64,000 nt of DNA from an uncultured Victivallales bacterium. GTDB taxonomy: Bacteria > Verrucomicrobiota > Kiritimatiellia > UBA8416 > CAYOBW01. Made by a program: the position numbers and the translations under genes. The notes under the pieces were generated by a model. The model was not told where the DNA came from and did no database searches. It saw only the letters and a list, made by a program, of their open reading frames with translations. Location of the stretch: NCBI GenBank assembly GCA_964402115.1, contig CAYOBW010000006.1:3303-67302 (forward strand), read 5' to 3'. Within the stretch, counting starts at the first letter, position 1. Each line of letters begins with the position of its first letter. This document shows, in pieces, positions 1,754 to 34,313 of this stretch.

Positions 1754-4700
1754 ATGAACCGACAGATTGAGCGACAGGCGGTTCGTTTTGCGGTGGCGGC
1801 TGCAGCCGGCTTGTGGCTGGCGCAGGTCCGTGCGGACATTACCAACCGGTGGGATTTCGGCAATCCCGCCGACTACGAAGTCTCGAACCCCGTCGATATC
1901 GAGGTCGCGAACGGCGTTGCCAAGCTCAAGCTGCAGGCCGACCGCAAGATCGATTCCGAAATCGGCACGTACTATACGAACGGCACGGAGCGGAGCCAGG
2001 TAAGCATTGGCTCGGACGTCAGCATCGTGCGTGCGCTGCCGTACAACAACCCCGCGATCTTCACGTCGCGCGTGCTCGATCACGGCGGCGGCGCCAACCT
2101 GTGGGAGCGTTTCCAGGCTAAGTGCCAGCCGAAGGCCGGCCTGAACGCCGGCGGCGAGATCCCGAAGAACATGAACGGGCTTGTCTGCCTGATGCACCTC
2201 AACAACACCTATCTCGACGTTGTCTCGAACAGCAACGGCGTGCCCGCCGCGACCGTGAAGTTCGTCGCGGACGCCCGCCTGGGTTCGCGCGCCGCCGATT
2301 TCCGCGTTGCAGCCGATACGATCCAAACGCCGACCTATCAACTGCTGAACGACGGCGACCAATTCACAATCAGTTTCTGGATGAAACCGCGCGAGCAGAA
2401 GGCGCAGGGTTTCGTGTCTTCCTACGGCACATGGTACATCGGCGTTCACAACTATGTGGGTGACGTGAGGAAGCTGAGCTTGATGGTCCATAACACGGCT
2501 GTGGCCAGCACGAGCATCTATCCCTTGAACGAGTGGACGCACGTGGCCGCCACGTGGCGCTCCTCGGACGGACTGGGCAAGATCTTCATCAATGGCAAGC
2601 TCGATGCGTCGGGGATCATCCAGAAGGGGACCCGTCTCTCGCAGACGGACTACTTCCACATTTCAGGTACGCGCCTCGGTTACCGGGCTAATGCCACGAT
2701 CGACGAGGTGGCGATTTTCAGCCGCTGTTTGACGGACAGCGAGGCGGCGACGTTGTACCTGATGCCGAGGTCGGCGCTTTTCCAGGTGCGTTCGTCCGAC
2801 AGTCTCGACACGCTGGGAAGCAAAACGTTCTGCGGGCCAGACGGGACGCTGAACTCCTTCTACACCGGCAACTACGACGTGCTAGGGTCGCTGGGCGATT
2901 TCAAGATCTGGGATCGCTACGCCCAGTACAAGGCCTATCTCTATGGACCGGCCTACCCCTCGGCGGATGACCCCTTTCTGGATGCGGTGGGGCTGACGGG
3001 TAACTTCAGCACGTTCATCGACAACACGGAGGGCGATTTCAAGGGCGGGCAATTCACGGACAGCGTGGCCATGAACCCGACCGGCCGGGATTCCCCCTAC
3101 CTGGGCCTCGCCAAGACCCCGAACGGCGGCTACCAGCGTGCAGGCCAGTTCACGTCGGCCGTCATCGAGACCGGTAAGCCGGAAGTCTGGTACAAGCTGG
3201 CGTGGGGTGTGCAGGAGGAGGTGGATGCCTCTCTCGACGGCAACATCGTCGGCTGCTACCACATGAACGGCGGCTTTGCGGATGCCAGTCCGAAAGGAAA
3301 CAACGGCGCCGGATCGGGCGTGGACTACACCGCCAACGCCAAGCTGGGTTCGCGCAGCGCCGTTTTCAATGGCACGTCGTCTTACGCCGACATTGGCGGG
3401 ACGATCGTGTCCGGCAGCGTGAAGAGCGTTGAGTTCTGGATCAAGGACGAGTACCTGGACGATGGCATTCTGCAGCTCTGTAACGACACCACCAACCATA
3501 TCTACCTGGCGATCGAAGGCGGCATGATTGTCGCGAAAGGCGTGCCGAACCGCGAGTACACGGCCTACGTCAACGGCAGCGCAACTTCGCGCCGGCTGCT
3601 GGCGGGGTGGAACCATGTGGCGGTGGTCTCGTCCGTTGCGATGCCCAGCCGGAAGCCCGTCATTGGTCGGGCCAATGGCGATTACCTCGACGGGATGCTG
3701 GACGAGCTTGTGCTCTACTCGCGGGCCCTGGACGCAGCCGAGGTGAACGCACACTACATGGCGCAGATGCGGCAGGTGGCCGGCCGGGCACGGCTGCAGG
3801 TTCGTTCGGGCGACGCGCTGCCGCTAACCGGCGCCTTCATCGGGCCCGACGGTTCGGCGCTCTCCTACTTCGATGTGGCGCAGCACAGTGGCGCCATCAT
3901 GCACGGCAGCATTTTCAACAAGAGCTATCTCCAGTACCGGGTCATCCTGGACGGCGATGGCGATGCGACGCCGGTCGTGAGGTTCGTCCGGGTGGACAAC
4001 GTGACGGGGCAGGTGATCTTCAAACACCAGTCGCACGTCGATTTCGATACGGGTGATTTTGACGGTGGCAAGCTCAAATGGGTGGGCGATGAGATCAAAC
4101 TGCAGAACGTGTCGTTGATGCCAGGCCTCGTGAATCTCAAGTCCCCGACGGCCGGTTTGGCCGGGTTGTGGCACTTGGACGAGGCGGAGTGGCTGCCCGG
4201 CGCCACCGTCAAGGATTCGGCCAGCGGCAACGACGGCAGCCCGCAGAACGGCACGGCTCCCAGCATGTTTGCGAAAGTGGGCACGTACTGCGGGAAGTTC
4301 GACGGCGCGGATGACTACATCATTGTACCCGGCACGCAGTTGGACGGCGATTTCACCGTCAGTGCCTGGTTCAAGTCGGCCAGCTCGATGCGCGCCGGCC
4401 TGGTTTGCCGCACCGACACCCGGTACACGCTGGAGCTCAACAGCGACGGCTTGGGCGGTGCGCTGGCCGGTGCGGTGGCGTTCACCGTCTACAACGGTTC
4501 CACGCGCCGCGTGGCCGTCAGCAGCGTGCGCAATATGAACGACGGCAACTGGCACCACGTCGCCGCCGTGCGCAACGGGGATGCGATTTACCTTTACGTG
4601 GACGGCACGCCGTGCGCCTCGACTGCGCTGGCGACGGGGTTTGGCAGCTTGATCATGGGCGATACCTGGCTGGGGGCGGCCCCCGGCACAACGGTTGGCT

Positions 4701-12639: not shown

Positions 12640-13962
12640 ATGCATAAGACGCCAGTCAGGTTTACCGTGGCGGTCAAGGGCGCCGTTTTCGTTCTTGCCT
12701 TTGGCCTGTTCGGCTCGACGCTTCGGGCTGCCGACACGATTGTGCTGCAGATTCGAGCGGGCAACCCCCAAACCAACACGCAGCCTGTCCTGATAAAAGC
12801 CAATCTGCCGCAACGGATTACAACAAACGATATCGTCAGCCTGGGCGGGTTGGAGTTGGGGTACGACGTCAAGAGCAGTACCTATTACGTGCACAAGCAA
12901 GTGGATTTGGCGCCTAGGGAGATACAGGTCTACCGTGTCGAGATCAAGGACATCTGGGAGATTCCCGAGGCGACGCTCGCGGACATGCTGAAGCACAGTG
13001 ACGCCCTCGTCGCCAAGCTGAAGGGCACGGAGTACCTGCCCTCAGCCGAGGGGTTGCGCAAGCAAATCAGCGACGTGATCTTGGGCATCCGGACGCTGCA
13101 AGGGGGTACAGCTGTACGCTCCGGCGATGAGGCGATTCAGCACGTTCGCGCGTTTGAGGCCAACCTGCGCGACTTGGACTTGGTCAGGAAGTTCGTGGGT
13201 CGCTTGGAGAACCTCGTGCTGGGAAGCGGTCAGGATGTGGACAAGCTGATTGGCGGGTACAGCACGACCGAACCGCCACGGCGGCGCGATGCCCCTCGGC
13301 CTGACGACGACCGCTACCAGACGGCGTTGGTGCGAATTACGGTACAGAACACGTCGCCGACCCTGCCGCGCAAGATTCCCGTCAAGCGGGACCTGCCGCC
13401 CGAAATTCATCCAGAAGACGTGCTAGACCCCGGCGACCTGGAAGTAGTGTCTGACATAAAAAGCGGTCAGTGCTATGTTTACAAGGAAAACGTTGAGATT
13501 CCTCCCGGTGCTTCGGTAACGTTCGAGGTCAAGATCCGTGACAAGTGGAACATCAACAAGCCGCGCTTCAAAGTCCTGCGCGAGGCTGGTCAGGACTTGC
13601 TCAAACTCGTGGCGGCCGAGGGCACGTACAAGGTCGTGGCGCAAACTCTGGAGGGACTGCTTAAGGAGTTGGGCGAGGTCGAGAAGACCCCCTCGCCGGA
13701 GACTCTGGATGATCGTTATGTGGCCTTCTTTCGGCAGCAATCCGAGCGCTTGGATCTCATCGAGCAGAAGCTGAACCGGGTCGAAACCGCGCTCAGGCCG
13801 ATGAAGCCAAAGAAGTACGGATTCGTGATCCAGCCGCCCAGCATGAGGACAACTTGGCTGATCATCTACGTCATTCTGATATTCCTGGCGGTTACCAGCC
13901 TGCTGTTCTTCCTGCGGTGGTACGGGCGCGCCAAGTCTGAGCGATTCGATGCGGAGCAGTAG
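12640..13962 (+). CDS. membrane-anchored exported protein of unknown function with an internal duplication
   Basis: N-terminal signal-like segment (AVFVLAFGLFGSTLRAAD) and a C-terminal TM segment (TWLIIYVILIFLAVTSLLFFL) with a short basic tail. Residues ~33-135 and ~228-335 align to each other (..LP..I...D....LE...D.KS..YV.K.....P......VEI.D.W.I..). No family was recognised. Confidence 0.75.
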   Translation: MHKTPVRFTVAVKGAVFVLAFGLFGSTLRAADTIVLQIRAGNPQTNTQPVLIKANLPQRITTNDIVSLGGLELGYDVKSSTYYVHKQVDLAPREIQVYRVEIKDIWEIPEATLADMLKHSDALVAKLKGTEYLPSAEGLRKQISDVILGIRTLQGGTAVRSGDEAIQHVRAFEANLRDLDLVRKFVGRLENLVLGSGQDVDKLIGGYSTTEPPRRRDAPRPDDDRYQTALVRITVQNTSPTLPRKIPVKRDLPPEIHPEDVLDPGDLEVVSDIKSGQCYVYKENVEIPPGASVTFEVKIRDKWNINKPRFKVLREAGQDLLKLVAAEGTYKVVAQTLEGLLKELGEVEKTPSPETLDDRYVAFFRQQSERLDLIEQKLNRVETALRPMKPKKYGFVIQPPSMRTTWLIIYVILIFLAVTSLLFFLRWYGRAKSERFDAEQ

Positions 13963-16978: not shown

Positions 16979-17223
16979 AAGTAACCATACTCAGTCCGCG
17001 GAAAGTCATCTTTGAAGGAGAGGCCAAAAGCGTTTTCGTTCCGGGGGACGAGGCTGAATTCGAGTTGCTGGACTACCACGCGCCCATTCTGAGCCTCCTG
17101 GTGCCGGGCATGATAACGCTGGACTGGGAACGACAGATTCCCGTCGAAAGAGGGATCGTCAAGTGCGAGAACAACGAGTGCGTGATTCTGGTGGAGGAAT
17201 CATTACCGCACCGGGAGCGTTAG
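16975..17223 (+). CDS. atpC: F-type ATPase epsilon subunit, beta-sandwich domain only (82 aa)
   Basis: VTILSPRKVIFEGEAKSVFVPGDEAEFELLDYHAPILSLLVPGMITL matches the epsilon N-terminal domain pattern (..G..GILPGHAPL...L.PG). The TTG start overlaps the alpha' TGA stop (TTGA). There is no C-terminal helical hairpin. Confidence 0.75.
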   Translation: MKVTILSPRKVIFEGEAKSVFVPGDEAEFELLDYHAPILSLLVPGMITLDWERQIPVERGIVKCENNECVILVEESLPHRER

Positions 17224-19310: not shown

Positions 19311-20741
<1,431 letters not shown>

Positions 20742-22479: not shown

Positions 22480-23697
22480 ATGCATACGTACGCGTACAAA
22501 GCCAAGAACGGGCCGGGACAAACGGTCGACGGGACCTTGGACGCGCCGTCGGACAAGGCCGCCGTGGCGGCGTTGGACGCCATGGGGTACAGCCCCATCT
22601 GGGTGCGGCAGACCGGCGAGGCCGGCTCGCAGGCGGGGCGGCGGCGGGGCCGGGTGCGCCGCCGCGTGCGGCCGGCCGATGTCACCCTTTTCACCGGGCA
22701 GCTGGCCACATTACTCCGCTCGGGCGTGCCCATCCTGCGCACCTTGCGCACCATCGGCGAGCAGGCTGAGAACCCCGCGCTGGGGGGCGTGGTGCGCGAT
22801 CTTGAGCAAACGATTCGCGACGGCAGCATGCTTTCCGCGGCCTTGGCCAAGCACCCCCGCCTTTTCGACGAGCTGTACATCAGCATGGTGCGGGCCGGTG
22901 AATCCGGCGGCGTTCTCGATGCCGTTCTGGCCCGGATGACCGAGGTGCGCGAAGAGGAGGAGGAGACGCGCCGGCGGGTTCAGGCGGCACTCGCCTACCC
23001 CCTCCTGATCTTCGTCGTGGGCGTGGCGACCGTGTTTGTCCTATTGACCTTCTTCCTGCCGAAGGTGCTGGACCTGTTCGACAGCTACGACAAGTTGCCG
23101 CTGCCGACCCGCCTGCTGATCGGCGCGAGTTCCTTCCTCGACCTCAACTGGCACTGGCTGCTTCTCGGGGTGGGGCTGTGCGGGTTGCTGTTCCAGCGCC
23201 TGCGGGCATCGGCGGGTGGCCGGCTGGCGCTGGATCGGTTCAAGTTGCGGTTGCCGCTGGTCGGTCGCATGCTCCAGGAGCTTGACGTGGCCCGCTTCGC
23301 GCGGACGCTGGCGGTTCTGCTCGATGCGGGCGTCGCCATCGATCGCGCCTTGACGCTGGCGCGCGAGACCCTGCGCAACGCCGTCCTGCGGATGGAAATG
23401 GAGAGTGTGCGCGACCAGACCATTCGACAGGGATCCCCGTTGTCGGCGGGCCTGCGGCGTGCCGAGCACTTCCCGCTCTTCGCCTCGAACATGGCCGCTG
23501 TGGGTGAAGAAGGCGGCAAACTCGATGAGGCGCTGCTGGAAATTGCGCGGTACTACGAGAAGAGCGTGGCGCAGCGCCTGCGTCTGGCCACGACCCTGCT
23601 TGAGCCGCTGTTGATCCTGGTGGTGGGAGCGCTCGTGGGCTTCATCGTCAGCGCCATGCTGTTGCCCATCTTCGAACTGGGCACGACGCTGCGCTGA
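22480..23697 (+). CDS. gspF: GspF/PilC-family platform protein
   Basis: About 400 aa with duplicated GspF domains (LATLLRSGVPILRTLRTI and LAVLLDAGVAIDRALTLA), three TM segments, and a C-terminal LLPIFEL motif. Confidence 0.9.
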   Translation: MHTYAYKAKNGPGQTVDGTLDAPSDKAAVAALDAMGYSPIWVRQTGEAGSQAGRRRGRVRRRVRPADVTLFTGQLATLLRSGVPILRTLRTIGEQAENPALGGVVRDLEQTIRDGSMLSAALAKHPRLFDELYISMVRAGESGGVLDAVLARMTEVREEEEETRRRVQAALAYPLLIFVVGVATVFVLLTFFLPKVLDLFDSYDKLPLPTRLLIGASSFLDLNWHWLLLGVGLCGLLFQRLRASAGGRLALDRFKLRLPLVGRMLQELDVARFARTLAVLLDAGVAIDRALTLARETLRNAVLRMEMESVRDQTIRQGSPLSAGLRRAEHFPLFASNMAAVGEEGGKLDEALLEIARYYEKSVAQRLRLATTLLEPLLILVVGALVGFIVSAMLLPIFELGTTLR

Positions 23698-23712
23698 GTG
23701 CGGCCCGCGGGC

Positions 23713-24546
23713 ATGGCTTACCGGAAGGAGTGTCACGTGCGCGGCGTTGCGGCGAATGCTGGTGTCCCCCTGCTGGCCATGCTGGTGTTGCTGCGGGGGG
23801 CGGCGTTGGCCGGGACGGCGGCCTGGCGGAGCGTCAAGAGCTTGCATTTTGTGGTCTATCATCAGGACGTGCCGGCCGTGGCCGCGCGCGTGGTGGAGCA
23901 GGCGGAGCAGTTCTATGCCCGCTTGGCCGACGGGTTGGACATGGCTCGCCACCGGGATTTCTGGACCTGGGAGCGCCGGGTCACAATTCGCGTCTACGGT
24001 ACGCGTGCCGCCTTCACGTCCGCCACCGGCGCCCCCGTCTGGGCGTCCGGCAAGGCGGACTACGCCGCCCGGACGATCAGCACCTGCGCCGAAAGCGTCG
24101 ACTTCAAGTCCGATCTGCTGCCGCACGAGATTGCGCACCTTGCGTTTCGCGATTTTGCCGGCTTCAAGGGCGCCATTCCGCTGTGGCTGGACGAGGGGGT
24201 CGCGGAGTGGGCGGCGCAAGGGTGCGACGGGCGTGTCGCGCGGCTGGCGGCTGGACTGCTGGCAACGGGGCGGCTGTCTGCCGTTGAAAGCCTGACGGCG
24301 ACGGACGTCCGCGGAGTGGCTGACCCGTCGTCCGCGCGCGCCTTCTACATTCAAGCGGCTTCCCTGGTGAGTTTCCTGATCCAGTCGCAGGGGGCCGGTT
24401 CGTTCCGGCGCTTTTGCGGCCACTTGCGCGACGGCAAACCCCTGGACGATGCTTTGCGGTTTACTTATCCCGATTCGCTGCGTAGTATCGAGGCTCTGGA
24501 TAAGGCATGGCGCGCGCGGCTGCGGGAGGAACTGGGACATGAGTAG
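23713..24546 (+). CDS. exported HExxH metallopeptidase-like protein (peptidase MA-like) embedded in the secretion operon
   Basis: Hydrophobic N-terminus (VPLLAMLVLLRGAALAG), HEIAHL motif, and a downstream LDEGVAEW that may supply the third ligand Glu. A GTG at 23698 immediately follows the gspF TGA, and the 3' end overlaps the gspG start by 8 nt. Confidence 0.65.
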   Translation: MAYRKECHVRGVAANAGVPLLAMLVLLRGAALAGTAAWRSVKSLHFVVYHQDVPAVAARVVEQAEQFYARLADGLDMARHRDFWTWERRVTIRVYGTRAAFTSATGAPVWASGKADYAARTISTCAESVDFKSDLLPHEIAHLAFRDFAGFKGAIPLWLDEGVAEWAAQGCDGRVARLAAGLLATGRLSAVESLTATDVRGVADPSSARAFYIQAASLVSFLIQSQGAGSFRRFCGHLRDGKPLDDALRFTYPDSLRSIEALDKAWRARLREELGHE

Positions 24547-24946
24547 TCAACGGTCGGGGTTCACGCTGATAGAGTTGATGGTCGTTGTCATTATCATTGC
24601 CGCGCTGGCTGGCATGGTTCTGCCCAAGGTGTTGCCCGCATCCGATGAGGCCAAGGCGAAAATCGCGCAAGGCAGCATAGCCGGGATCGAGACCGGCCTG
24701 GATCTGTATCGCCTGCACAACGACCGCTATCCGGGACAGGACGAGGGGCTCAACGCTTTGTTGGTGCGCACGGCTTCGGCGCGCAACTGGAATGGTCCCT
24801 ACCTCAAGAAGAAACCCATGGATCCATGGAAACGGCCCTTTCAGTATCGTTACCCCGGCGTGCGCAATGCTTCCGGTCCGGACGTGTGGGCGCTTGGTCC
24901 GGATGGGCAGAACGGGACCGAAGATGATGTCTGGGCCGAGGAGTAG
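24539..24946 (+). CDS. gspG: major pseudopilin GspG
   Basis: Prepilin leader and cleavage motif MSSQRSG/FTLIELMVVV. The body is GspG-like (AKIAQGSIAGIETGLDLYRLHNDRYP...GLNAL...WNGPYL...DPWKRPFQYRYPG...D). Confidence 0.9.
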   Translation: MSSQRSGFTLIELMVVVIIIAALAGMVLPKVLPASDEAKAKIAQGSIAGIETGLDLYRLHNDRYPGQDEGLNALLVRTASARNWNGPYLKKKPMDPWKRPFQYRYPGVRNASGPDVWALGPDGQNGTEDDVWAEE

Positions 24947-25013
24947 TACGTGTTCCGGCAAGGAGCGGCCTGGCTGCGGGACACCTGACACAGGGGCGAC
25001 GCCCCTGTCGTGT

Positions 25014-25442
25014 GTGGCTTCAAGAGGCGGTCGTGACGCCGGCGCGAGCCGTGGCTTCACGCTGATTGAAGTCCTGGTCTCCCTGTTCATCCTTTCGATC
25101 GGATTGGTGGCCGTGCTGCGCGCCCTCGACACCTCGGTCATCGCTGTCGGAGAGGCTCGGGATGCCGTTGTCGCCGCTTCCGACATGCAAACCCGCCTGG
25201 CGGGGGCCGTGGACGCAGCCCGCGAGGGTGAAAGCCGGCTACTGGGATGTGCGGGTGACTGGCGGCTGTCCGGCGGGTTGGTGGGGGTGCTGGCGGTTGA
25301 AAAGATGCGTCTCCAGTCGGGCGCTCCGGACACGGCAGGTGGACTCTATGCCGTTACGGTGACGGTAGGCCGGGATGGCCGTGCGCGTCACCGTGCCGCC
25401 ACCCTTGTGCGCGTAGCTTCCGAAGAACCGAAACAGCCCTGA
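25014..25442 (+). CDS. minor pseudopilin (GspI/GspH-like)
   Basis: Class III signal ...ASRG/FTLIEVLVSLFILSIGLVAVL. The GTG start at 25014 was chosen as the first plausible start after the gspG stop, so the start is uncertain. Confidence 0.7.
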   Translation: MASRGGRDAGASRGFTLIEVLVSLFILSIGLVAVLRALDTSVIAVGEARDAVVAASDMQTRLAGAVDAAREGESRLLGCAGDWRLSGGLVGVLAVEKMRLQSGAPDTAGGLYAVTVTVGRDGRARHRAATLVRVASEEPKQP

Positions 25443-25462: not shown

Positions 25463-26053
25463 GTGAAACGCGGCTTCACCTTGATCGAGTTGCTTGTCTC
25501 TACCGCCTTGCTTACGGCGATCATGGTTGCCGTGGGAGCGTGCCTGGCCGCCGGTTTGCGGGTGCTGGATGGCACGCGCGAGTTTGGCGCCACGGAGGCG
25601 AAGGCCCAGGCAGGGCTGATACTGCTCGGACGCGACCTGATGAACACGTTCCCTTTCCGCGGAGCGGTCTTCAAGGGTAGCGCAGACCAGGTTAGCATGG
25701 CGGGGATGGTATTGCCCGCATCCGGGGAGTCCGGCAAGGCTGAGGTTCGCGAGGTATCCTATCGTTTCGACCCCCGCCACAGAACGATCCGTCGCAGTGT
25801 GCGGGGCGGGGTGCATACACCGCTTGACGCCGATCCGTCCGACGAGGCCATTATCGAGCATGCTCGCGAATTCACGGTGCTCTACCGTTCGGCAAGGATT
25901 CCCCGCGGTGGAGAGCCCCCCTGGCAGGAGCAGTGGAACAACGCTTCGAATTTGCCGGAGCAGGTCAAGGTTGAGCTGTTGGTCGAGACGCGTCACGGTC
26001 CGGTTCCCTATGTTCGGTCGTTCCGTCTCGCCGCGGCTGCGCCTCCTCAGTGA
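25463..26053 (+). CDS. minor pseudopilin (GspJ-like)
   Basis: MKRG/FTLIELLVSTALLTAIMVAVG prepilin motif with a GTG start and a size of about 195 aa. Confidence 0.75.
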   Translation: MKRGFTLIELLVSTALLTAIMVAVGACLAAGLRVLDGTREFGATEAKAQAGLILLGRDLMNTFPFRGAVFKGSADQVSMAGMVLPASGESGKAEVREVSYRFDPRHRTIRRSVRGGVHTPLDADPSDEAIIEHAREFTVLYRSARIPRGGEPPWQEQWNNASNLPEQVKVELLVETRHGPVPYVRSFRLAAAAPPQ

Positions 26054-26059: not shown

Positions 26060-27067
26060 ATGGATGGTTTCGTGCGCGGAAGACGTGCCAGCGTGCTCAT
26101 TGTGTGCCTTTGGGCGTTGTTCCTGCTGGGAGCGCTGACGCTGGCCGTTGGCGCACATGTGTCAGCCGGTCTTCGTATGGCACATGCTCTGTCTCAGCAG
26201 GTCCGGGCGTACTACCTCGCCCAGGGGGCGATTGCCTGGTCCGTGGAGGCGATTCGCGCGAACACGAATGCCTGGGACGGGTGCAGCCCGACAGCCTGGA
26301 ACAACAGCACGGCACTCTTCGGCACGAACGCCTGCCTTGAGACGGGAGCATTTGCGGTCGAATGCGCAGTCCCGCTTTCGCCTGAGCGGTCGGTTCGACT
26401 GGCGGGGGTCATCGGCGCGGAGCGGAAACTGCATCTGAACAAGATGCCCGTGGCCACGCTGGAGGCCCTTCTGCACGATGTCGGTCGCCTTGACGCGGTG
26501 CGGGCCAAGCGCCTGGCTGCTGTCCTGCAAGGCTGGAGATCGGGAGGGGAACAAGAGTTGACACAACGCAAGGAGGATGGCTACTATCCCGTCGTAAGTG
26601 GATCGGGAGCCGCACATACGGGACCCTTTGCGTCGGTTCAGGAGTTGCTGCTCGTGCCTGGATTTGACGGCGACCTGTTTGCGCGTGTTGAGCAGTACGT
26701 AACGGTCATTGGCAATGGCAAGGTTAACGTTAACGTGGCGTCCGAAACCGTGATGCAGGTGGTTGCCATGTCGCGCGGGATCGATGCAATCTCTGCGCGG
26801 CGCGTGGCGCAGGAGATTAGTCAGGCGCGGCCCCGGAAGAGCCTCGACGATTTCCAGGCGGTACTGAGCGAGCGCAGTCGGGCGCCGTTTTCGGCCATGC
26901 GCAACCTTGTGACCGTGCGCTCGACTGTATTTGAGGGAACAGCGCTGGGAATCATCCACGATTCCCGGACGAGAAGGCAGGCGCGTGAGGGCGACGAGGC
27001 GCCGCGAAGTCGCATAGATTTCGCGGTTGATGCGGACGGAACGGTACGGTATTGGCATGAGTACTAA
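26060..27067 (+). CDS. gspK: GspK-like minor pseudopilin
   Basis: N-terminus RRASVLIVCLWALFLLGALTL without Glu at +5. GspK hallmark stretches are present (KLHLNKM..ATLEALL, FASVQELLLVPGF, GKVNVNVAS). Confidence 0.8.
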   Translation: MDGFVRGRRASVLIVCLWALFLLGALTLAVGAHVSAGLRMAHALSQQVRAYYLAQGAIAWSVEAIRANTNAWDGCSPTAWNNSTALFGTNACLETGAFAVECAVPLSPERSVRLAGVIGAERKLHLNKMPVATLEALLHDVGRLDAVRAKRLAAVLQGWRSGGEQELTQRKEDGYYPVVSGSGAAHTGPFASVQELLLVPGFDGDLFARVEQYVTVIGNGKVNVNVASETVMQVVAMSRGIDAISARRVAQEISQARPRKSLDDFQAVLSERSRAPFSAMRNLVTVRSTVFEGTALGIIHDSRTRRQAREGDEAPRSRIDFAVDADGTVRYWHEY

Positions 27068-28508
27068 ATCAGCTCCGGGTGACGGGAAGCCTGTGGTTGT
27101 GGTCGAAATCGGCAACGACTGGCTGAAGATCCTGCATGCACGAGCGGACCGTCGTGGGCTGATAGCCGAGCATCTCTTCCTTGAAAGAATCGTCCCGGGA
27201 GACCTGGAACTGCCAGGGCGTATAGCCGCCCTTTTCGAGAAGCACCGCCTGCCCAAGAACAACGTGGTCGCCTGCCTGCCTCGGCAGGTTGTGAATGTCA
27301 GGTTGCTCGATCTGCCGTCCACGGACCGCGATGAAATCGCCGACATGGTCGAGTTGCAGTCCGCACGGCAAACGCCGTATACGAAAGACGAGATTGTTTT
27401 CGACTATCGTGTACTGAGCACGGCCCGTGAAGGCTACACGAAGGTCATGCTGGCGATCGTCCAGCGCAACGTGCTGCGCGAGCGTTTCCTGCTGCTGGAG
27501 GAAGCCGGCCTGTCACCCGTGCGCATGACCGTAACGTCCGAGGGGTTGCTCAACTGGTTCAATCTCTGCGCGGCTGTCCCGGCCGATCAGGGCGCTGCGA
27601 TCCTCGACGTGGACTCGTTCTACAGCGACTTCGCGGTGATTGCAGCCCGGCAGCTCGTCTTTACCCGTAGCATGCTCATGGGGGCGAACGAACTCATTGG
27701 CGGTGACCCGGCTGCGCTCCAAAGGCTGGTGGGCGAGGTCAAACGTTCTCTGGACATGTTCCGCAGCGAGCACGGGCGGGCGGAAATGGGCAAGTTGATC
27801 GTGACCGGAGCAGGCCTGCATGTGACCGCTCTGGCGGGCGCCCTGCGCGCGGCGCTGGACCTGCCCGTGGAGAACGCTGACGTTCGGGGGAACATGACGC
27901 GGCAGCCGAAGGGGGCGGTGCTGGACGATCCGGCGAACCTCTCCGCGTCCCTCACCTCGATCGTGGGCATGGCGCTGGCGCCTCAGGAGTTGTCGTTCAA
28001 TCTGGTGCCCGAGACGGTTCGCTTCCGAAGAAATCTGCTGGAGCGTGCGCGGCGGATGTCGTGGCTGACGATCCTGGTGATGGGTTTCATGCTGTCCCTG
28101 TCTACGTATGCCTGCGTGCGCTACGGCCTCGCGTGGTCCGCATTGAGGACGCGTCAGCACGGCATTGCAGCCACCGAGAAGCAAGCGCAGGCGGTGCGCT
28201 GGATGCAGGGCATCGTCAAGGTCATCCGCGAACGCGAACGGAACGAAGCCAGCGTTCTGCGGCAGCTGGATGTCATTCACGCGGCTACGCCGCGCGGCAT
28301 TTACCTGGACCAACTCGATCTCGATGTCTCCAAACGGCAGGCCACCATGGAGGGGGCTGGGCAGTCCATCAAGGAGATTCGCGACTTCGCCGCCAGCTTG
28401 GAGAATGGTCCCTTTTTCAAGAACGTCAAGGATGGCGGTTACCAGTTGGATCCGGCAAAGGGCATGTACAAGTTCCGCATGGTTTGCGCCTTGGAGGTTC
28501 CGGAATGA
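27057..28508 (+). CDS. gspL: GspL-like assembly protein (PilM actin-like domain fused to a PilN-like TM and periplasmic part)
   Basis: N-terminal PilM-like region (VVVEIGNDWLKILHA ... ILDVDSFYSDFAVI ... LIVTGAGL), a mid-protein TM segment (WLTILVMGFMLSLSTYACV), and a C-terminal PilN-like domain. Overlaps the gspK end by 11 nt. Confidence 0.75.
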   Translation: MSTKSAPGDGKPVVVVEIGNDWLKILHARADRRGLIAEHLFLERIVPGDLELPGRIAALFEKHRLPKNNVVACLPRQVVNVRLLDLPSTDRDEIADMVELQSARQTPYTKDEIVFDYRVLSTAREGYTKVMLAIVQRNVLRERFLLLEEAGLSPVRMTVTSEGLLNWFNLCAAVPADQGAAILDVDSFYSDFAVIAARQLVFTRSMLMGANELIGGDPAALQRLVGEVKRSLDMFRSEHGRAEMGKLIVTGAGLHVTALAGALRAALDLPVENADVRGNMTRQPKGAVLDDPANLSASLTSIVGMALAPQELSFNLVPETVRFRRNLLERARRMSWLTILVMGFMLSLSTYACVRYGLAWSALRTRQHGIAATEKQAQAVRWMQGIVKVIRERERNEASVLRQLDVIHAATPRGIYLDQLDLDVSKRQATMEGAGQSIKEIRDFAASLENGPFFKNVKDGGYQLDPAKGMYKFRMVCALEVPE

Positions 28509-29074
28509 TCACCGCCAAACTCGACAAGCTCAGCGGACGCGAGCAGGCGCTCATTGCGGCGGCTGCCCTCAGTGTGCTCGGCTATCTCATGGATCTTTTC
28601 GTTGTCGGGCGCGTGGCGGGTGCGCTCAAGACTGTGTCTCAGGAGATTGAGCAGGCCGATCTGCGGCTCGATGTCAACAAGCGGGTTCTGCTGATGGAGC
28701 GGGACGCCAAAGACGAGTTCGAGAAAGAAAAGGGTAAGTTCACAGTAGCCGGCGCGGCCGCCCGCGCAAGCGAGGAGACCAGGGGACAAATTCACGACCT
28801 TGCCGTACGTACAGGCGTCGTGGTGGTCTCCAGCGAGCAGAGGGAACCCGTCAAGGGTGAATTTGCGGACGAGTATGCCGTTGAGATCAAGCAGTTCAAA
28901 GCGGATATCGACAAGTTGATCGATTTCCTTTACGAATTGCAGGCAGCACCCGGTATGCTGCGGGTCGTGAGATTGACGGTCAGCCCCCCTCCTCGGGGAG
29001 AAGGTGGGCTGGAGGGGGCCATGCTCATAACCAAGCGCATGGTACCAGGTGATAGGGCTCCGATTGCCCCGTAA
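28505..29074 (+). CDS. GspM/PilO-like assembly protein
   Basis: ATGA overlap with the upstream stop. It has an N-terminal TM segment (ALIAAAALSVLGYLMDLFVV), a coiled coil, then a ferredoxin-like end (YAVEIKQFKADIDKLIDFLYELQAAPGMLRVVRLTV). Confidence 0.7.
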   Translation: MITAKLDKLSGREQALIAAAALSVLGYLMDLFVVGRVAGALKTVSQEIEQADLRLDVNKRVLLMERDAKDEFEKEKGKFTVAGAAARASEETRGQIHDLAVRTGVVVVSSEQREPVKGEFADEYAVEIKQFKADIDKLIDFLYELQAAPGMLRVVRLTVSPPPRGEGGLEGAMLITKRMVPGDRAPIAP

Positions 29075-29107: not shown

Positions 29108-30343
29108 ATGTCAGAGCGCGATCACAACCTGCAAGACAACGGATCATACACCACCGGTGCTGTGTTGACACGGCATACCGAGGCGGTGCCGGCGGCCATG
29201 GGCCCCGTGATCACCATGGAGTTGGTACAGCGCTACGTCGAGTCCGAACGCAATCGTCACCGGCGTATCCTGCTTTGGACGAGCGCCCTTTCTGTCTTTG
29301 TCATCCTCCTCGTGCTCGTGCTGTTCGTCTCGATCGGCATTTTTGTCCTGTCGAACGCACGGCGTGCTGCCGAAATCGCCGAGGGCGTGGAAGACCGGAC
29401 TGAGGCCGTGGCCACGGAAGTCACTGGCGTCTCCAGCAAGGTCGGGGAATTGGTGTCGACTCAGCAACACGTTAAGCAGAAACTGGAGGCCGATGATACC
29501 CAGCGTAAGGAGGATCGCGTTATGCTGCAAAGCGACCTGCGCCGCTTCAGCCAGTGGGTATCGACGTCGCAGAGTCGCGATGAGGAGGCTTTCAAAGCCA
29601 TGGAGTATCGGTTGCGGCAGATGGAGTCAAGCCTTGCCACGCGGGACCGCGAACTCGTCGCACTGCAGGAGCGATACACAGCCCTCCAAACTGCCACGGT
29701 GAGCCTCGGTCGCGCTGCCGCGCCAACAAATCTTGAGCTTGCGGTCACGGCTCCCAGCCTGCCATCCGCGAGCCAGAGTACCGGCACCAACCTGCTTCCG
29801 ATTACGGTACCCACTGTGCCCGCGCCCGCACAAGACCGGGAAACCAACACCGTGTCTTTCCCGAATGGCGACCGCTACGAAGGCGAATTCGAAGACGGGC
29901 TGTTCAACGGTTACGGCGTGTACGCCTTCGGGAATGGCGATCGCTACGAAGGCTACTTCGAGCAGGACGTCATGCACGGCAAGGGTGCCATGGTCTACGC
30001 CAATGGGAATCGCTACACGGGTGAATGGCGCATGGGCAAGCGTAACGGCATCGGCGAACTGCGCTTGGCCAATGGCGATGTCTACACGGGAACATTCGCT
30101 GATGACCAGCGAACCGGTCAGGGTACGTATGCGTTCAAAGGCGGCGCTCGCTATGTTGGGGAGTTCCTGAACGGCGTTCGGCATGGTAACGGCTGTTACC
30201 GCTACCCCGCGGGCGACGAATACAGAGGATATTTCAAGGATGGCAAGCGCGATGGCGCCGGTGTATGCACTTTCGCTAACGGTCAGCAGGTAAAGGGTTT
30301 ATGGAAAGACGATCAGTTGGCTGAACGCGTTGAAGGTGAGTGA
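29108..30343 (+). CDS. membrane-anchored coiled-coil protein with C-terminal MORN repeats
   Basis: TM segment (ILLWTSALSVFVILLVLVLFVSIGIFVL), a coiled coil, a Pro/Ser linker, then about 7 MORN units (YEGEFEDGLFNGYGVY, YEGYFEQDVMHGKGAM, YTGEWRMGKRNGIGEL, YTGTFADDQRTGQGTY, YVGEFLNGVRHGNGCY, YRGYFKDGKRDGAGVC). Confidence 0.85.
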   Translation: MSERDHNLQDNGSYTTGAVLTRHTEAVPAAMGPVITMELVQRYVESERNRHRRILLWTSALSVFVILLVLVLFVSIGIFVLSNARRAAEIAEGVEDRTEAVATEVTGVSSKVGELVSTQQHVKQKLEADDTQRKEDRVMLQSDLRRFSQWVSTSQSRDEEAFKAMEYRLRQMESSLATRDRELVALQERYTALQTATVSLGRAAAPTNLELAVTAPSLPSASQSTGTNLLPITVPTVPAPAQDRETNTVSFPNGDRYEGEFEDGLFNGYGVYAFGNGDRYEGYFEQDVMHGKGAMVYANGNRYTGEWRMGKRNGIGELRLANGDVYTGTFADDQRTGQGTYAFKGGARYVGEFLNGVRHGNGCYRYPAGDEYRGYFKDGKRDGAGVCTFANGQQVKGLWKDDQLAERVEGE

Positions 30344-30368: not shown

Positions 30369-30398
30369 TTGACGTCGAATGGTGTTTTGGCTGAGAAT
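30369..30398 (+). promoter_or_regulatory. candidate sigma70-type promoter
   Basis: TTGACG (30369-30374), an 18-nt spacer, then GAGAAT (30393-30398), within an AT-richer gap. AGGAG ribosome-binding site before ATG 30425. This is a pattern match only. Confidence 0.25.
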
Positions 30399-30424
30399 AG
30401 GGCACGTAAATAGGAGTAAGCACT

Positions 30425-32566
30425 ATGACAAACGCACAAAAGCTTCATGAATCCTCGCGCGGGTTAGTCTTCATGGCGGCACTGGTTGCGGCAGGGGCGC
30501 TGGTGCTTCCCTCGCGGGCGGCAAACAGTCTGCCATGGACGGACGACTTCGAGACGGGATACATCGAGAACACGCCCCTGAACGGAGGAGCAAAGGGCTG
30601 GACCGCGTCCGACACGGGCGTGAAAGCGCAGTCCGGCGTCAAGCACCTAGGGGCCTTTGCGGCCTTTATCCCCAGCGAGGCGGGAGTCACCAACCTCTTC
30701 TCCGGAGCACCGCAAAAGGTGTGGATCGACATGTACGTGCGGCCCACCCTTCAGTCGCTGTACGCGCCTGGAGACCCCACTGTCGATGCGACAGCTACCG
30801 CCTTCTTCTTCTTCCAATCAAACGGATTCGCGCGCGTGCGCAACGGTAGTCTCTGGGAGAACAAGACGGGGAATCCCGTTAACGGTAGCCAGTTCTACCG
30901 CGTGACTGTTTTCGAAAACCACACGACTGACAAGTGGGCTCTCTTCATCAACGGGGTGATGGTGGCTGACCAGTTGGTCTTCGCCAACCCCGGTGCCGGC
31001 TTTACCTCGCTGGCCGTGCGCAATGGCGCCTACCTGGACAACGTCTTCGTCAGCACCTACTTCCCACAGGCAGGCGATCTGAACGGAGTACTGAGCACCG
31101 ACGACGCGGATGCCGACAGTTCGGCAGACGTCTGGGAACTCCACTACTTCGGCAACAAGCTTACCTACGGCGCCGGGGCAGACCCTGATGGAGACGGTCG
31201 CTTCAATGAAGAAGAGTGGGCAACCTCGACAGATCCGACCTCGGCTAGCTCGGTCGCGTGGACGATCCCCTATCTGCAGACGTTCGAAACGGCCGTCCAA
31301 GGGATTTCGAGCTCTTGGCACGGCATCACCAAGTCTGGAGCCGGGCAAGCGAGCATCGTTGCCTCAACCGAAATGCAGGGCTCCCGCGTGCTGAACATCA
31401 GCACCGCGACAGTCAGCTTTGCGCTGTCGACACTCAACGCAAACAATACGAACGTCTGGTGCCAGATCTACGCGAAGCCGGGCGTCTATTACGATGGCGG
31501 CGGTTCGCCGACCCTCGGTGCTGATACGGTTTGCGGTTTCTACGTCCGCCGCTCCGATGGTGCCCTGATGGTCTACAGCAACACGATCTGGCAGCAGGCC
31601 ACCCTACTGCCCACAGTCCCAACCAACAAGTGGCTGGGGTTTGCCGTTCACTTGGACTATTCACCCAATCCTACAACCGGTCGGAAATGGGAGCTATATG
31701 TCTCTACCAATGGCACTTATGGCGCATTGATGAAGCGCGTACATACTGGTTCACTCGCATTCAACAGCAGTGCCGTCAACACAAGCTTCTCAGGAATCCA
31801 GATCGAAACCGAGCTGCCAGCCTATCTGGACGCGCTCGCCGTGTCTCCTGGATTTGACGGTACGGCAGATTCCTTAGACGCCAACCTCGTTGTACATGAG
31901 CGCTTTGCCAATGCGACGAAGTATATCTCGCGCCCGCCGTATGCTTACTCGGATGCCGACTCCAAACTGAACGGCCTTGTGGGAACGCACTTGAAGCGCG
32001 GTCTGAAAACCGGAGGCAATGCCGCTCCCTTGCCATTAGCTGACAACCTTAAGGTGCTAACTGATGAATGGCAGTCGTACTACGTGAATACGCTGTCGAC
32101 TTGGAACGTCGCGACGGTCGGCTCGGCGCCGACGTCGGAAATGGTCATCACAAACACAGCAGGACTTTCCCTGGCTCGCCGCCCGGGTACCGACTTCGTC
32201 GTGTTCTATCCTCACACGAACACGGACACCAATCAGGCCTTCTCGGGCAACATTCATGGTTCAGGCACCGTGAACGGCTGGAACGTGTTGTCTCTACCGC
32301 CCAGCTTCCGTCCACGTCTCGTGAACGGAGCTCCCGATGGCGGCCCAGGATTCCCCGGCGGAACGAACTACACGGATTATGTTCAAGCGGCGGCTGGTGA
32401 TGAGATCCGCATTTTCGAGGGTGGGCGCCGGCTCTACTTCAACGTCCTCAGCAAGAAATGGATGGAGAAGGGATCGGTGGCGGATGCAACCCTTCATCCC
32501 GGCATAGGTTTCCTCCTGCGTCGCAAGGATGGAACGGATGTTACATGGGCGCCGACAGACAATTAA
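30425..32566 (+). CDS. secreted protein of unknown function with two related modules and an Asp-rich thrombospondin-type-3-like motif
   Basis: Signal peptide (LVFMAALVAAGALVLPSRAA). Related module starts LPWTDDFETGY and WTIPYLQTFETAV. Motif DDADADSSADVWELHYFG...DPDGDGRFNEEEWATSTDP. Confidence 0.8.
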   Translation: MTNAQKLHESSRGLVFMAALVAAGALVLPSRAANSLPWTDDFETGYIENTPLNGGAKGWTASDTGVKAQSGVKHLGAFAAFIPSEAGVTNLFSGAPQKVWIDMYVRPTLQSLYAPGDPTVDATATAFFFFQSNGFARVRNGSLWENKTGNPVNGSQFYRVTVFENHTTDKWALFINGVMVADQLVFANPGAGFTSLAVRNGAYLDNVFVSTYFPQAGDLNGVLSTDDADADSSADVWELHYFGNKLTYGAGADPDGDGRFNEEEWATSTDPTSASSVAWTIPYLQTFETAVQGISSSWHGITKSGAGQASIVASTEMQGSRVLNISTATVSFALSTLNANNTNVWCQIYAKPGVYYDGGGSPTLGADTVCGFYVRRSDGALMVYSNTIWQQATLLPTVPTNKWLGFAVHLDYSPNPTTGRKWELYVSTNGTYGALMKRVHTGSLAFNSSAVNTSFSGIQIETELPAYLDALAVSPGFDGTADSLDANLVVHERFANATKYISRPPYAYSDADSKLNGLVGTHLKRGLKTGGNAAPLPLADNLKVLTDEWQSYYVNTLSTWNVATVGSAPTSEMVITNTAGLSLARRPGTDFVVFYPHTNTDTNQAFSGNIHGSGTVNGWNVLSLPPSFRPRLVNGAPDGGPGFPGGTNYTDYVQAAAGDEIRIFEGGRRLYFNVLSKKWMEKGSVADATLHPGIGFLLRRKDGTDVTWAPTDN

Positions 32567-32591
32567 CCTTTGAACGAAAAGAGGTGACGTC

Positions 32592-33566
32592 ATGAAGCAA
32601 GTCGTTAGGAAAGTTGCAGTAGGAATGGCGACGGTGGCGTTGGCGTGCGGATCAACGATGGCCGCCAAGCCTGGCGTGTATGCCAGACCGATTCTGCCTG
32701 GGATCGTAGATGGCAGCCCCGTCTTCATCTCCGGCAGCGGGGGTGACCTAACGGTCAACTTCGATGCGGTTCCCACCGTATCGATCCCGCCGTCCGACAC
32801 CGGCACGTGCGGTGCCGAAGTCAAAACATCGTTCGGCAATTTGGCGGGCGACTATGATGCCGGGAAGGTTCAGGGGATCATTTTCAAGATCCGCCGCAAC
32901 GTGGGTTCTGGCCCTGTTCGCGTCGGTCTTACCGTGACATCGAGGGACGTCGGCATGTGGCGCTTCGAGCGCGTGCTGGTGCCGGACGCGACGGGGACGT
33001 GGGTGACCAACACGGTGTCCATTGACAGACGTGCGGGATGGATGATGGAAGTGCCACCGGGGTACACGGAAGAGCAGAAGGACGACCTCTGGAAGCAAAC
33101 CCTACGCTCCGTTTGCAGCGTTTCAGTTATGGTCACGCGACGAGGGTACGAGGCGGAAAGCTACAGTGTCGATGACTTGGTGCTCTTTGGGGACGGGTTC
33201 ATGACCAAGGAAGCCAAGCTGACCGCGAGCCTGATGGACGCATTCGGCGTGCAGAGCACCGCAGACTTGGCACCGGGTCAGTTGATGGCGGACTCCGACC
33301 GGGATGGCGTAAGCGACGTCGATGCCGTGCAGGCTGGCAAGGATCCCGGCTTGGCGGTATCAATTCTGGATGTGACCGCTGTTGGCGTGCGCTTGGAGTG
33401 GCCGTGTGTCGCCAAGAAGACATATACACTCTACCGTTCGGAAACGATGAGTGGGGAGTTTCTCCCCATCGCCGTTGTGCCTGCATCCGAGAGTGGTTAC
33501 ATGACGTACATGGATGCTGAAGCGACCGGGGCGGGGCCGTTCTTCTACAAAGTAAAGAAGCAGTAA
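32592..33566 (+). CDS. secreted protein of unknown function (Asp-rich motif plus Fn3-like C-terminus)
   Basis: Signal peptide (VAVGMATVALACGSTMAA), DSDRDGVSDVDAVQAGKDP, then VTAVGVRLEWPCVAKKTYTLYRSETMSG. AGAGGTGA ribosome-binding site. Confidence 0.75.
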   Translation: MKQVVRKVAVGMATVALACGSTMAAKPGVYARPILPGIVDGSPVFISGSGGDLTVNFDAVPTVSIPPSDTGTCGAEVKTSFGNLAGDYDAGKVQGIIFKIRRNVGSGPVRVGLTVTSRDVGMWRFERVLVPDATGTWVTNTVSIDRRAGWMMEVPPGYTEEQKDDLWKQTLRSVCSVSVMVTRRGYEAESYSVDDLVLFGDGFMTKEAKLTASLMDAFGVQSTADLAPGQLMADSDRDGVSDVDAVQAGKDPGLAVSILDVTAVGVRLEWPCVAKKTYTLYRSETMSGEFLPIAVVPASESGYMTYMDAEATGAGPFFYKVKKQ

Positions 33567-33602
33567 CCGAGTGTCTGCTGCGAGGATGGAAGGAGAAAGC
33601 AA

Positions 33603-34313
33603 ATGAATAAGTTCATTGTGGGAATCTCGACCTTGGCCTGGGTGGCCATCTGTAGTCAGGCTGGTATCATTGTTACGGAAGACTTTGATTCGTATTCCAG
33701 TTTTGCGGCGACCCCGTCCTTTGATTCGAACGCAACATGGGGACCGGGTACCGTTCCGGGGTGGGGTGGAGGAAGCACGTTCACATCCACGGATGGGGAT
33801 GCGCTGGGCATGTACTTCGTAGGGGCGCAGCTCGGTTCTGGCTTCGAAGGAAATTGGAATGGCCTTTTACCGGTAAAGACCATCTCATCCTATTTCTATG
33901 CGAATTCCGGGTCGCCGAGTGGTAAGCCAAATTCCCTGGAAATGTATTTCATAGGAATGGGAGAAAAATGGTACTACCCCTTGGCGCCAGTGGGTGGGTG
34001 GGGTTACTATTCGGTTAGCGTTGGGGAGTACTACGTAGGCCCGGGAAATTGGTACAATTTTGATGGCCGGACCCCAACGCAATTCCTTGCTGACATGGGC
34101 AATGTTACCGAGGTTGGCTTCTATCTGACCTACGATCCCGGCTACAATGATCAAATTTACGCCATGGATGACTTGACGCTCTTGGATGACTTCAACGTTC
34201 CGGAGCCGGGAACCATGATGTTCCTCGGGGCTGCGTTTGTTTCGCTAGGGCTGACGTTCCGCCGGCGCCTTGGAGAGAGCTTGGCGATGGTCAAGACAGC
34301 GATTAAGGGTTAG
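33603..34313 (+). CDS. PEP-CTERM sorting-domain protein
   Basis: Signal peptide plus the C-terminal motif VPEPGTMMFLGAAFVSLGLTFRRRLG (PEP, TM segment, Arg cluster). The DNA is visibly less GC-rich than the neighbouring genes. Confidence 0.85.
   Translation: MNKFIVGISTLAWVAICSQAGIIVTEDFDSYSSFAATPSFDSNATWGPGTVPGWGGGSTFTSTDGDALGMYFVGAQLGSGFEGNWNGLLPVKTISSYFYANSGSPSGKPNSLEMYFIGMGEKWYYPLAPVGGWGYYSVSVGEYYVGPGNWYNFDGRTPTQFLADMGNVTEVGFYLTYDPGYNDQIYAMDDLTLLDDFNVPEPGTMMFLGAAFVSLGLTFRRRLGESLAMVKTAIKG

Follow-up and report, generated by a model that had tools for sequence, protein, structure and literature searches.

A stretch of 64,000 nucleotides from an uncultured Victivallales bacterium (GenBank assembly GCA_964402115.1, contig CAYOBW010000006.1, positions 3,303 to 67,302 of the forward strand), referred to here as the window, carries a long block of plus-strand genes in which an operon for an F-ATPase-like complex is preceded by genes for a giant secreted protein and for a 440-residue membrane protein, called p440 in the following, and is followed by genes for a filament machine resembling a type II secretion system (T2SS). 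With modest confidence, we favour the view that these genes encode a single conserved envelope module, in which an ATPase motor lacking an a subunit would be combined with a giant fibre anchored by p440 and with a T2SS-like filament machine, and which is found in bacteria of the Kiritimatiellia/Lentisphaerae type and of the Omnitrophota type.

Linkage of the ATPase genes with p440 and the filament genes

Related loci were collected with three independent seeds, p440, the gamma subunit of the ATPase and the GspL-like protein of the filament machine, and amounted to 101 in total. For p440, 166 unnamed homologs with 40-63% identity were obtained from metagenome-assembled genomes (MAGs) of Kiritimatiellia, Lentisphaerae or 'Verrucomicrobia', and scanning an alignment of these homologs against one genome per GTDB species gave 65 loci. 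An alignment of gamma sequences from distant loci was scanned against JGI metagenomes and gave another 27 loci. The GspL-like seed had 128 homologs, including some at about 32% identity in MAGs labelled as Omnitrophota, and ten of their contexts were taken, nine of which had usable upstream DNA while one was too short on that side. The proteins of the window were mapped on all loci by tblastn and a junction was counted only where the contig reached far enough.

In every testable case (66/66) the gene for the beta subunit was followed by the gene for GspE, that is in 42/42 p440-seeded, 15/15 gamma-seeded and 9/9 GspL-seeded loci. An apparent group of loci with beta and without GspE had shown up in a first count and was rejected, because weak beta matches on alpha genes in contigs that ended early were responsible for it; a recount left no exception. 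All testable p440-seeded loci (62/62) have an ATPase gene after p440, and p440 was present upstream in all ten gamma-seeded loci with at least 7 kb of upstream sequence, and the ATPase adjoined the GspL-like genes in all 9 contexts with enough upstream sequence. The step from GspE to GspF was kept in 36 of 38 p440-seeded, 11 of 11 gamma-seeded and 9 of 9 GspL-seeded loci. Over the 101 loci, this synteny covers at least two phylum-level lineages.

Inside the ATPase block, three gene orders were encountered. The order of the window type is alpha'-alpha-epsilon-c-b-delta-gamma-beta, and in other lineages the order is epsilon-b-delta-c-alpha-gamma-beta or epsilon-c-b-delta-alpha(-alpha)-gamma-beta, and yet the linkage of p440, ATPase and GspE is kept in all of them. 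Since this linkage survives the reordering of the ATPase genes, it is better explained by selection that holds the genes together than by recent common descent. The original prediction, which was made from the window alone, had proposed that giant protein, F-ATPase-like operon and gsp genes form one functional unit and had suggested a study of neighbourhood conservation. The genes for ATPase, p440, giant protein and gsp components do co-occur, as the constant junction between beta and GspE illustrates, and the synteny of 101 loci, together with the fusions of giant and p440 genes described below, gives strong comparative-genomic support to such a unit. A physical cooperation of the two ATPases, the F1-like one and GspE, in one machine is what we infer beyond this.

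An F-type ATPase operon without an a subunit

The beta subunit looks catalytically competent, as its P-loop and its catalytic GERIREG motif are invariant in all orthologs, and its nearest relative in the PDB is the canonical bacterial F1 beta. Alpha' and beta scored above the NCBIfam equivalog cutoffs and have their nearest PDB relatives in canonical bacterial F1, whereas gamma, epsilon, c and the b-delta fusion remained far below their cutoffs. About 85 of 87 orthologs of alpha' have the arginine finger as compared to none of about 66 orthologs of the second alpha paralog, and this second paralog is missing altogether from some lineages.

For epsilon, the match to TIGR01216 covers profile positions 2-80 of 130 and the C-terminal helical domain is absent. 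The homologs are equally short with 75-78 residues, giving a family range of 75-82 residues. In bacterial enzymes, the C-terminal domain of epsilon inhibits ATP hydrolysis. The gamma subunit is very divergent from canonical versions, with a best PDB match of only 35.6 bits, and shows 60-69% identity within its own family, for which 510 matches were obtained. For the b-delta fusion, the NCBIfam models for b and for delta matched below their cutoffs.

No other protein of the module is as conserved as the c subunit, which shows 75-89% identity between loci whose GspL-like proteins share 32%. Its GRNP loop is present in 68 of 68 loci and, in alignments with chloroplast and bacterial c subunits, its glutamate falls on the carboxylate that binds the ion in solved c-rings. 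In five of 68 species (L011, L015, L018, L040 and L060), this glutamate, which lies within FAEAIAVIA in the window, is replaced by methionine (FAMAIA or FAMSIA); four of these species have otherwise complete clusters and the fifth is L040, whose cluster is described further below.

No match to an a subunit (ATP-synt_A) was obtained among the genes of the cluster or the other window open reading frames (ORFs) scanned, and none of the gaps between p440 and GspE in 96 related loci would be able to hold a polytopic protein of this kind. The large gaps in the ATPase blocks of L078 and L081 were considered as places for a-subunit genes and rejected in view of their contents. The insertion at L078:1976-5977 encodes a reverse transcriptase (YMDD motif), two small proteins resembling four-helix bundles and an FGE-sulfatase-like secreted protein, and the one at L081:4209-5895, inside the ATPase block, encodes an FGE-sulfatase-like secreted protein as well. 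The window also encodes a protein with YceI and FGE-sulfatase domains at 44863-46443 on the minus strand.

The absence of an a subunit from the loci checked, the short epsilon, the replacement of the c-ring glutamate by methionine in five of 68 species and the second alpha without an arginine finger make it unlikely that this ATPase serves as a housekeeping ATP synthase. Kiritimatiella glycovorans, a cultured relative, uses a V-type ATP synthase according to its published description (PMC5148204). The invariant motifs of beta and the conservation of c and of gamma within the family speak for a functional motor. Judged by its sequence features, the complex would fit an ATP-hydrolysing F1 head that drives a conserved rotor and for which ion translocation is dispensable.

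p440 and the giant protein

The ORF of the giant protein opens at GTG 1724, and ATG 1754 is its likely start. The protein has a Sec signal peptide and no transmembrane (TM) segment, and about 500 residues of its C-terminal part consist of helical 'LTN..W.DI' repeats. These helical repeats, at residues ~2950-3500 (window ~10600-12200), recur as 'LTN...(I/V)(D/N)W.DI', and similar repeats of the type 'KTDTI.W..VTG' were seen in P0453, one of the fusion proteins mentioned below. In about half of the 65 genome loci, and also in loci of a variant B, the gene immediately before p440 encodes a full-length homolog of the giant protein, and giant ORFs homologous to the window protein also precede p440 in Omnitrophota-type loci.

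No Pfam or NCBIfam model matched p440. An AlphaFold2 model (mean predicted local distance difference test score of 84) predicts two copies of a unit composed of a beta-sandwich and a three-helix bundle, and an attempt to assign a fold with Foldseek against the PDB was given up, as no match had an E value below 0.07. In a profile search of 1.84 billion representatives, the p440 family comprised 929 cluster representatives, again unnamed. The TM helix is the most conserved segment of p440, since 11 of the 36 invariant columns fall into the last ~30 residues, and its motif TTWxIIYxIxGF...FFFxLW is kept even in the distant variant B.

In several members of the family, a whole p440 forms the C-terminus of a protein of 1200-2000 residues. 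The fusions P0429, P0430, P0448 and P0453 are single ORFs that are collinear with the separate giant and p440 genes of locus L081; P0429 shows 60% identity to L081 over the giant gene and 46% over p440, and its N-terminal part is homologous to the giant protein of the window (E = 8e-57). A module common to p440 and the giant protein of the window was looked for with the p440 profile and none was found, and hence the fusions are true gene fusions. As p440 is fused to the giant protein in some lineages, p440 is probably the inner-membrane anchor of the giant fibre, and it is probably also the membrane partner of the ATPase. Three p440 orthologs (L076:506-2362, L077:5245-7131 and L085:5507-7387) continue after the TM helix with a C-terminal cytoplasmic diguanylate cyclase domain of the GGDEF type (~140 bits).

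The filament machine

The genes downstream of beta encode an assembly ATPase, a platform protein, pseudopilins and GspL- and GspM-like proteins. GspE and GspF scored below the NCBIfam equivalog cutoffs of both the T2SS and the type IV pilus models. The gene for a metallopeptidase of the MA clan lies between those for GspF and GspG in most, not all, related loci. The MshEN domain of GspE reached 36.6 with the NCBIfam model for the cyclic di-GMP (c-di-GMP) motif, for which the cutoff is 38. The presence of MshEN on GspE and the fusion of GGDEF to p440 in some lineages suggest that the module may be under the control of c-di-GMP. Neither PilT nor PilP/PilQ was found in the cluster, in the other window ORFs scanned or in 9 related loci.

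At L069:3434-5140, GspE was called as two ORFs of 355 and 212 residues, which indicates a frameshift or a sequencing error. In two Omnitrophota-type loci, L067 (12050-18501) and the contig of P0237, the gene for the PilO-like protein is directly followed by genes for a TolC-like OEP, an HlyD-like adaptor and an ABC transporter. These may provide a route through the outer membrane that replaces the secretin, or may be there by coincidence.

Proposed mechanism and alternative explanations

From gene content, conserved linkage, the patterns of loss and substitution, and the gene fusions, all of which are observed, we infer physical contacts, a direction of energy flow and a cellular role in the following way. 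The first part of the module would be an F1Fo-derived ATPase with a competent alpha/beta head, a gamma-epsilon stalk, a c-ring and a b-delta stalk, which would run as an ATP-hydrolysing motor and not as an ion-coupled ATP synthase. The second part would be the giant LamG/Ig fibre, which would leave the cytoplasm through Sec and be tethered to the inner membrane by p440, whose TM helix might sit against the membrane part of the ATPase, that is, against the c-ring or the helix of b-delta. As a third part, the T2SS-like machine would build a pseudopilus and would export, extend or erect the fibre and the secreted proteins encoded in the same block. The most likely output would be the surface display of a giant adhesin and its ATP-powered movement or tensioning, for attachment or surface motility.

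Several points weigh against this scheme. The glutamate of the c-ring is kept in 63 of 68 species, as would be expected if ion binding still mattered in most of them, and it is possible that an a subunit is encoded elsewhere in the carrier genome, the search having covered the window and 96 loci. The invariant Arg426 of p440 was considered as an analogue of the a-subunit arginine and was rejected, as its position is at the cytoplasmic helix end and variant B has a leucine there. The cluster itself carries no gene for a secretin, GspC or a prepilin peptidase, and none turned up among the other window ORFs scanned or in the 10 kb on the downstream side of 9 related loci; these components may be encoded elsewhere. 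Also, the clusters of L029 and L063 end after GspE and are followed by unrelated genes, and that of L040 ends after b-delta, with gamma, beta and gsp genes missing there; these breaks of synteny could be due to split clusters, decay or misassembly.

A bolder version of the proposed module, which we regard as rather unlikely, takes the a-less F1Fo complex for a mechanical transducer across the membrane. Hydrolysis of ATP would turn or rock the gamma-epsilon-c rotor, rocking being suggested by the second alpha without an arginine finger, and the torque would be passed on through the p440 helix to a periplasmic assembly and the giant fibre, while the c-ring would work free of ions and the GspE/F machine would build or guide the fibre. 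If this were true, diderm bacteria would have converted an F-ATPase into a machine that powers adhesion, gliding or the capture of prey.

Among the rival explanations, it seems improbable that the ATPase is a true ion pump which shares its regulation with the secretion system and has no mechanical link to fibre or pilus. It would then resemble a Na+/H+ exporter of the N-ATPase type or a local source of proton-motive force, and its a subunit would be encoded elsewhere. Glutamate and GRNP loop of the c-ring, kept in the window and in 63/68 loci, and the complete central and peripheral stalks speak for such a pump, and a distant atpB might exist outside the loci covered, but no a subunit was seen in 96 loci or in the window ORFs scanned and methionine replaces the glutamate in otherwise intact clusters. 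The NCBIfam models for N-ATPases (alt_F1F0) all stayed far below their cutoffs (464/483 versus 750 for the two alphas, 489 versus 752 for beta, 27 versus 282 for gamma and 47 versus 225 for b), AtpQ and AtpR were not found, and the operon holds no extra small membrane genes. The strict co-linearity with p440 and GspE would be left unexplained by a pump, and so would the fusions of giant and p440 genes.

Still more doubtful is the possibility that the F1-like head is a non-rotary ATPase for export, unfolding or assembly, comparable to FliI-FliJ-FliH of type III secretion, which would pass on the giant protein or pseudopilins at the membrane or act as their chaperone, and would use the c-ring only as a docking platform. 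FliH has a b-like plus delta-like architecture, which the b-delta fusion mirrors, models for FliI/SctN match alpha and beta at ~170 bits, and an alpha without an arginine finger suggests that the hexamer is asymmetric and has not been optimised for rotation. However, alpha and beta score far higher with F-type models than with models of type III secretion systems, the rotor interface formed by gamma, epsilon and the GRNP loop of c is strongly conserved, and a cytoplasmic export ATPase would not be needed for the giant protein and p440, because both have Sec signal peptides.

A coincidental juxtaposition, which the original prediction had left open and in which an ordinary housekeeping F1Fo ATP synthase operon would by chance have an adhesin gene on one side and a T2SS operon on the other, is extremely improbable and effectively refuted by the synteny data, for although alpha' and beta exceed the NCBIfam atpA/atpD equivalog cutoffs and beta is nearest to canonical F1 beta in the PDB, the adjacency is kept in all testable loci from three seeds, across phyla and despite internal rearrangement, none of the 96 loci checked has an a subunit, epsilon is truncated, c carries methionine in 5 species and one alpha lacks the arginine finger.

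Layout of the gene block and other genes of the window

ORF listing and Pfam/NCBIfam scans gave an unbroken run of 22 consecutive plus-strand genes between 1754 and 34313, flanked by a gene for a Na+/alanine symporter upstream on the minus strand and by a dihydrouridine synthase gene downstream. The co-directional run of the original prediction thus stands, and its estimate of about 25 genes is corrected to 22. Its gene order, from the giant protein over p440, seven ATPase genes and the gsp genes to a MORN protein and secreted proteins, agrees with the profile scans, and each junction that it had named as a sign of coupling was recovered exactly. These are a TTGA at 16975 between alpha and epsilon, a TGA followed by GTG between gspF and the peptidase gene (23695-23700), an ATG for GspG at 24539 that lies 8 nt before the stop of the peptidase gene, an ATG for the GspL-like protein at 27057 that lies 11 nt before the GspK stop, and an ATGA at 28505 between the GspL-like and GspM-like genes. 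The stop of beta and ATG 20806 of GspE are 64 nt apart, the overall range given for the distance between beta and GspE being 52-64 nt.

Features of the block are compiled below.

Features of the 22-gene block and of the hairpin at its 3' end (positions are those of the window)
Feature	Position	Strand	Basis or remarks
Giant secreted LamG/Ig protein, 3605 aa	1754..12541	+	Pfam Laminin_G_3 259 bits
p440, 440-aa bitopic protein	12640..13962	+	Signal peptide, two periplasmic modules, C-terminal TM helix
F1 alpha'	14047..15510	+	P-loop and arginine finger (LSVSRIG); TIGR00962 atpA 504 bits, cutoff 484
Second alpha paralog	15473..16978	+	P-loop kept, no arginine finger (LSLSIVG); 44% identical to alpha'
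Epsilon, 82 aa, N-terminal beta-sandwich only	16975..17223	+	Pfam ATP-synt_DE_N
c subunit, GRNP loop and ion-binding Glu	17240..17491, probable start ATG 17255	+	Aligned to chloroplast/bacterial c
b-delta fusion, peripheral stalk: N-terminal TM helix, coiled coil, C-terminal OSCP-like domain	17589..18335	+	Pfam OSCP, residues 174-234
Gamma	18417..19310	+	Pfam ATP-synt 82.7 bits; TIGR01146 57.7, cutoff 194
Beta, DELSKAD motif	19320..20741	+	TIGR01039 533 bits, cutoff 463
GspE/PilB-type hexameric assembly ATPase, N-terminal MshEN	20806..22440	+	Pfam T2SSE 440 bits, MshEN 72 bits
GspF/PilC platform protein	22480..23697	+	Pfam T2SSF 215 bits; TIGR02120 369, cutoff 424
MA-clan metallopeptidase, HEIAH motif, membrane-anchored or secreted	23698..24546	+	Pfam Peptidase_MA_2
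Major pseudopilin GspG, G/FTLIE prepilin motif	24539..24946	+	Pfam T2SSG 103 bits, N_methyl
Minor pseudopilin	24924..25442, start uncertain: ATG 24924/24927 or GTG 25014	+	Pfam N_methyl
Minor pseudopilin	25463..26053	+	Pfam N_methyl; homologs in related loci
GspK-like minor pseudopilin	26060..27067	+	Pfam T2SSK_1st
PilM-PilN fusion (GspL-like assembly platform)	27057..28508	+	Pfam PilM_2, PilN
GspM/PilO-like bitopic protein	28505..29074	+	Weak T2SSM_b match; homologs annotated PilO or T2SSM
Membrane protein, coiled coil and MORN repeats	29108..30343	+	Pfam MORN 119 bits
Secreted 713-aa protein, two internally repeated lectin-like modules	30425..32566	+	No Pfam match
Secreted 324-aa protein	32592..33566	+	No Pfam match
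PEP-CTERM protein	33603..34313	+	Pfam PEP-CTERM
Intrinsic-terminator-like hairpin and T tract, 3' end of block	34333..34363	+	14-pair stem

The claim that there is no convincing terminator before this final hairpin was borne out by both scan and folding. Terminator-like sites were fewer than in shuffled sequence and the hairpin was the sole strong one, and the fold z-score against shuffles amounted to -3.0 for 34314-34416 as compared to -1.1 to +1.8 for the internal intergenic gaps. In the AT-richer, unstructured gap between the genes for the MORN and the 713-aa proteins, a sigma-70-like match (TTGACG, 18 nt, GAGAAT) at 30369-30398 is a possible internal promoter for the last three genes, encoding the 713-aa, the 324-aa and the PEP-CTERM proteins.

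A MORN gene occupies the same position in L066, L091, L092 and L097-L099. Syntenic homologs of the last three genes were found in L097-L099, and the gene for the 713-aa protein is absent from L066. Of the four window-type loci long enough to cover this region, three have homologs of the MORN gene and of the trio in the same arrangement, and Omnitrophota-type loci have none of these genes.

Elsewhere in the window, plus-strand genes at 50446-55423 encode a 1053-aa TPR protein, a smaller TPR protein and a protein of the ExbB/TolQ/MotA family, and may constitute a Tol/Ton-like unit unrelated to the module. Two squalene-hopene-cyclase-C-like proteins are encoded at 56436-60381.

Comparison with known systems

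Like canonical F1Fo enzymes, the operon of the window contains homologs of alpha, beta, gamma, epsilon, c, b and delta, and unlike them it lacks an a subunit, has a truncated epsilon, a fused b-delta, highly divergent gamma and c subunits, and a second alpha without an arginine finger. Rotary F-ATPases are ion-coupled energy converters. If our reading is true, a widespread F-ATPase that has no ion channel, has kept its rotor and is encoded together with a type IV filament machine and a membrane-anchored giant adhesin would show the rotary mechanism put to a new use in two-membrane bacteria. The filament genes are like those of T2SS and type 4a pili (T4aP) in that GspE, GspF, a G-type pseudopilin, minor pseudopilins including GspK, PilM-PilN and a GspM/PilO-like protein come in the usual order, and they differ in that the cluster lacks GspD/PilQ, GspC/PilP, a prepilin peptidase and PilT and carries a metallopeptidase between GspF and GspG.

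The original prediction knew of no described system with this combination, which does not hold, as a pairing of this kind has been published for Omnitrophota. There, a non-respiratory F-type ATPase was reported beside T4aP clusters in all classes, with both clusters within 10 kb on 57 of 66 contigs, and a role in attachment or motility was proposed (Seymour et al., 2023; PMC10066038). As in those loci, the F-type ATPase cluster of the window directly adjoins a cluster of GspE/PilB, F, pilin and PilM/N/O genes, within 10 kb. Two of our loci, L067 and L070, whose GspL-like proteins are labelled Candidatus Omnitrophota by NCBI, contain all core genes in conserved order with a giant ORF upstream, and share with the window 29% identity for p440, 60% for c, 62% for beta, 55% for GspE and 32% for GspL. 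The window differs from the Omnitrophota loci by another gene order, the duplicated alpha without an arginine finger, and the MORN protein and three secreted proteins downstream. Going by the labels of its nearest homologs, it is best described as a Kiritimatiellia/Lentisphaerae-type variant of the locus type noted earlier in Omnitrophota.

In the earlier study, the pilus part is named T4aP and alpha is grouped with Mycoplasma type 2/3 ATPases, a grouping that the scores of our hidden Markov model searches do not support, for the Mycoplasma type 3 cutoffs were missed with MSC_0618 (383 bits, cutoff 570) and MSC_0619 (283, cutoff 520), and the same applied to the MMOB1660/1670 models (378 versus a cutoff of 600 and 407 versus 850). 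In its main text and the supplements covered, there is no mention of a missing a subunit, the p440 family, fusions of giant and p440 genes, or the exchange of glutamate for methionine in c (Seymour et al., 2023; PMC10066038), and our literature searches retrieved no report of the combination in Kiritimatiellota or Lentisphaerae. The absence of the a subunit, the p440 family, the giant-p440 fusions and the Glu-to-Met replacements in c are what the present analysis adds. The module would also join two features of Omnitrophota and their relatives in the Planctomycetes-Verrucomicrobia-Chlamydiae (PVC) group that have so far been discussed separately, namely giant ORFs and 'symbiotic' ATPase/pilus loci. 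Experimental handles are offered by the lack of the a subunit, the Glu-to-Met c subunits, the alpha without an arginine finger, the giant-p440 fusions, and the link between GGDEF and MshEN.

The F1-like ATPases of Mycoplasma are the closest functional precedents. In Mycoplasma mobile, the G1-ATPase is thought to drive giant surface 'leg' proteins (Toyonaga et al., 2025; PMC11864180), and the same logic of an F1-derived ATPase acting on a giant adhesin is proposed here. M. mobile is a monoderm, in contrast, and its motor is dimeric, chained and cytoplasmic, without c-ring, b-delta stalk or pilus machinery (PMC11864180); the beta subunit of the window reached 331 bits with G1 beta (9io5) as compared to 469 with canonical F1 beta from the PDB. 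The extracellular MIB-MIP system depends on the Mycoplasma type 3 'F1-like X0' ATPase (Berlureau et al., 2026; PMC12994834). The cluster of this ATPase lacks c, a b-delta stalk and type IV filament genes and has a 12-TM protein instead. As in the window, however, its alpha/beta/gamma/epsilon head is encoded beside an extracytoplasmic system, and it includes a protein that, like p440, combines a signal peptide and extracellular globular domains with C-terminal TM helices (PMC12994834).

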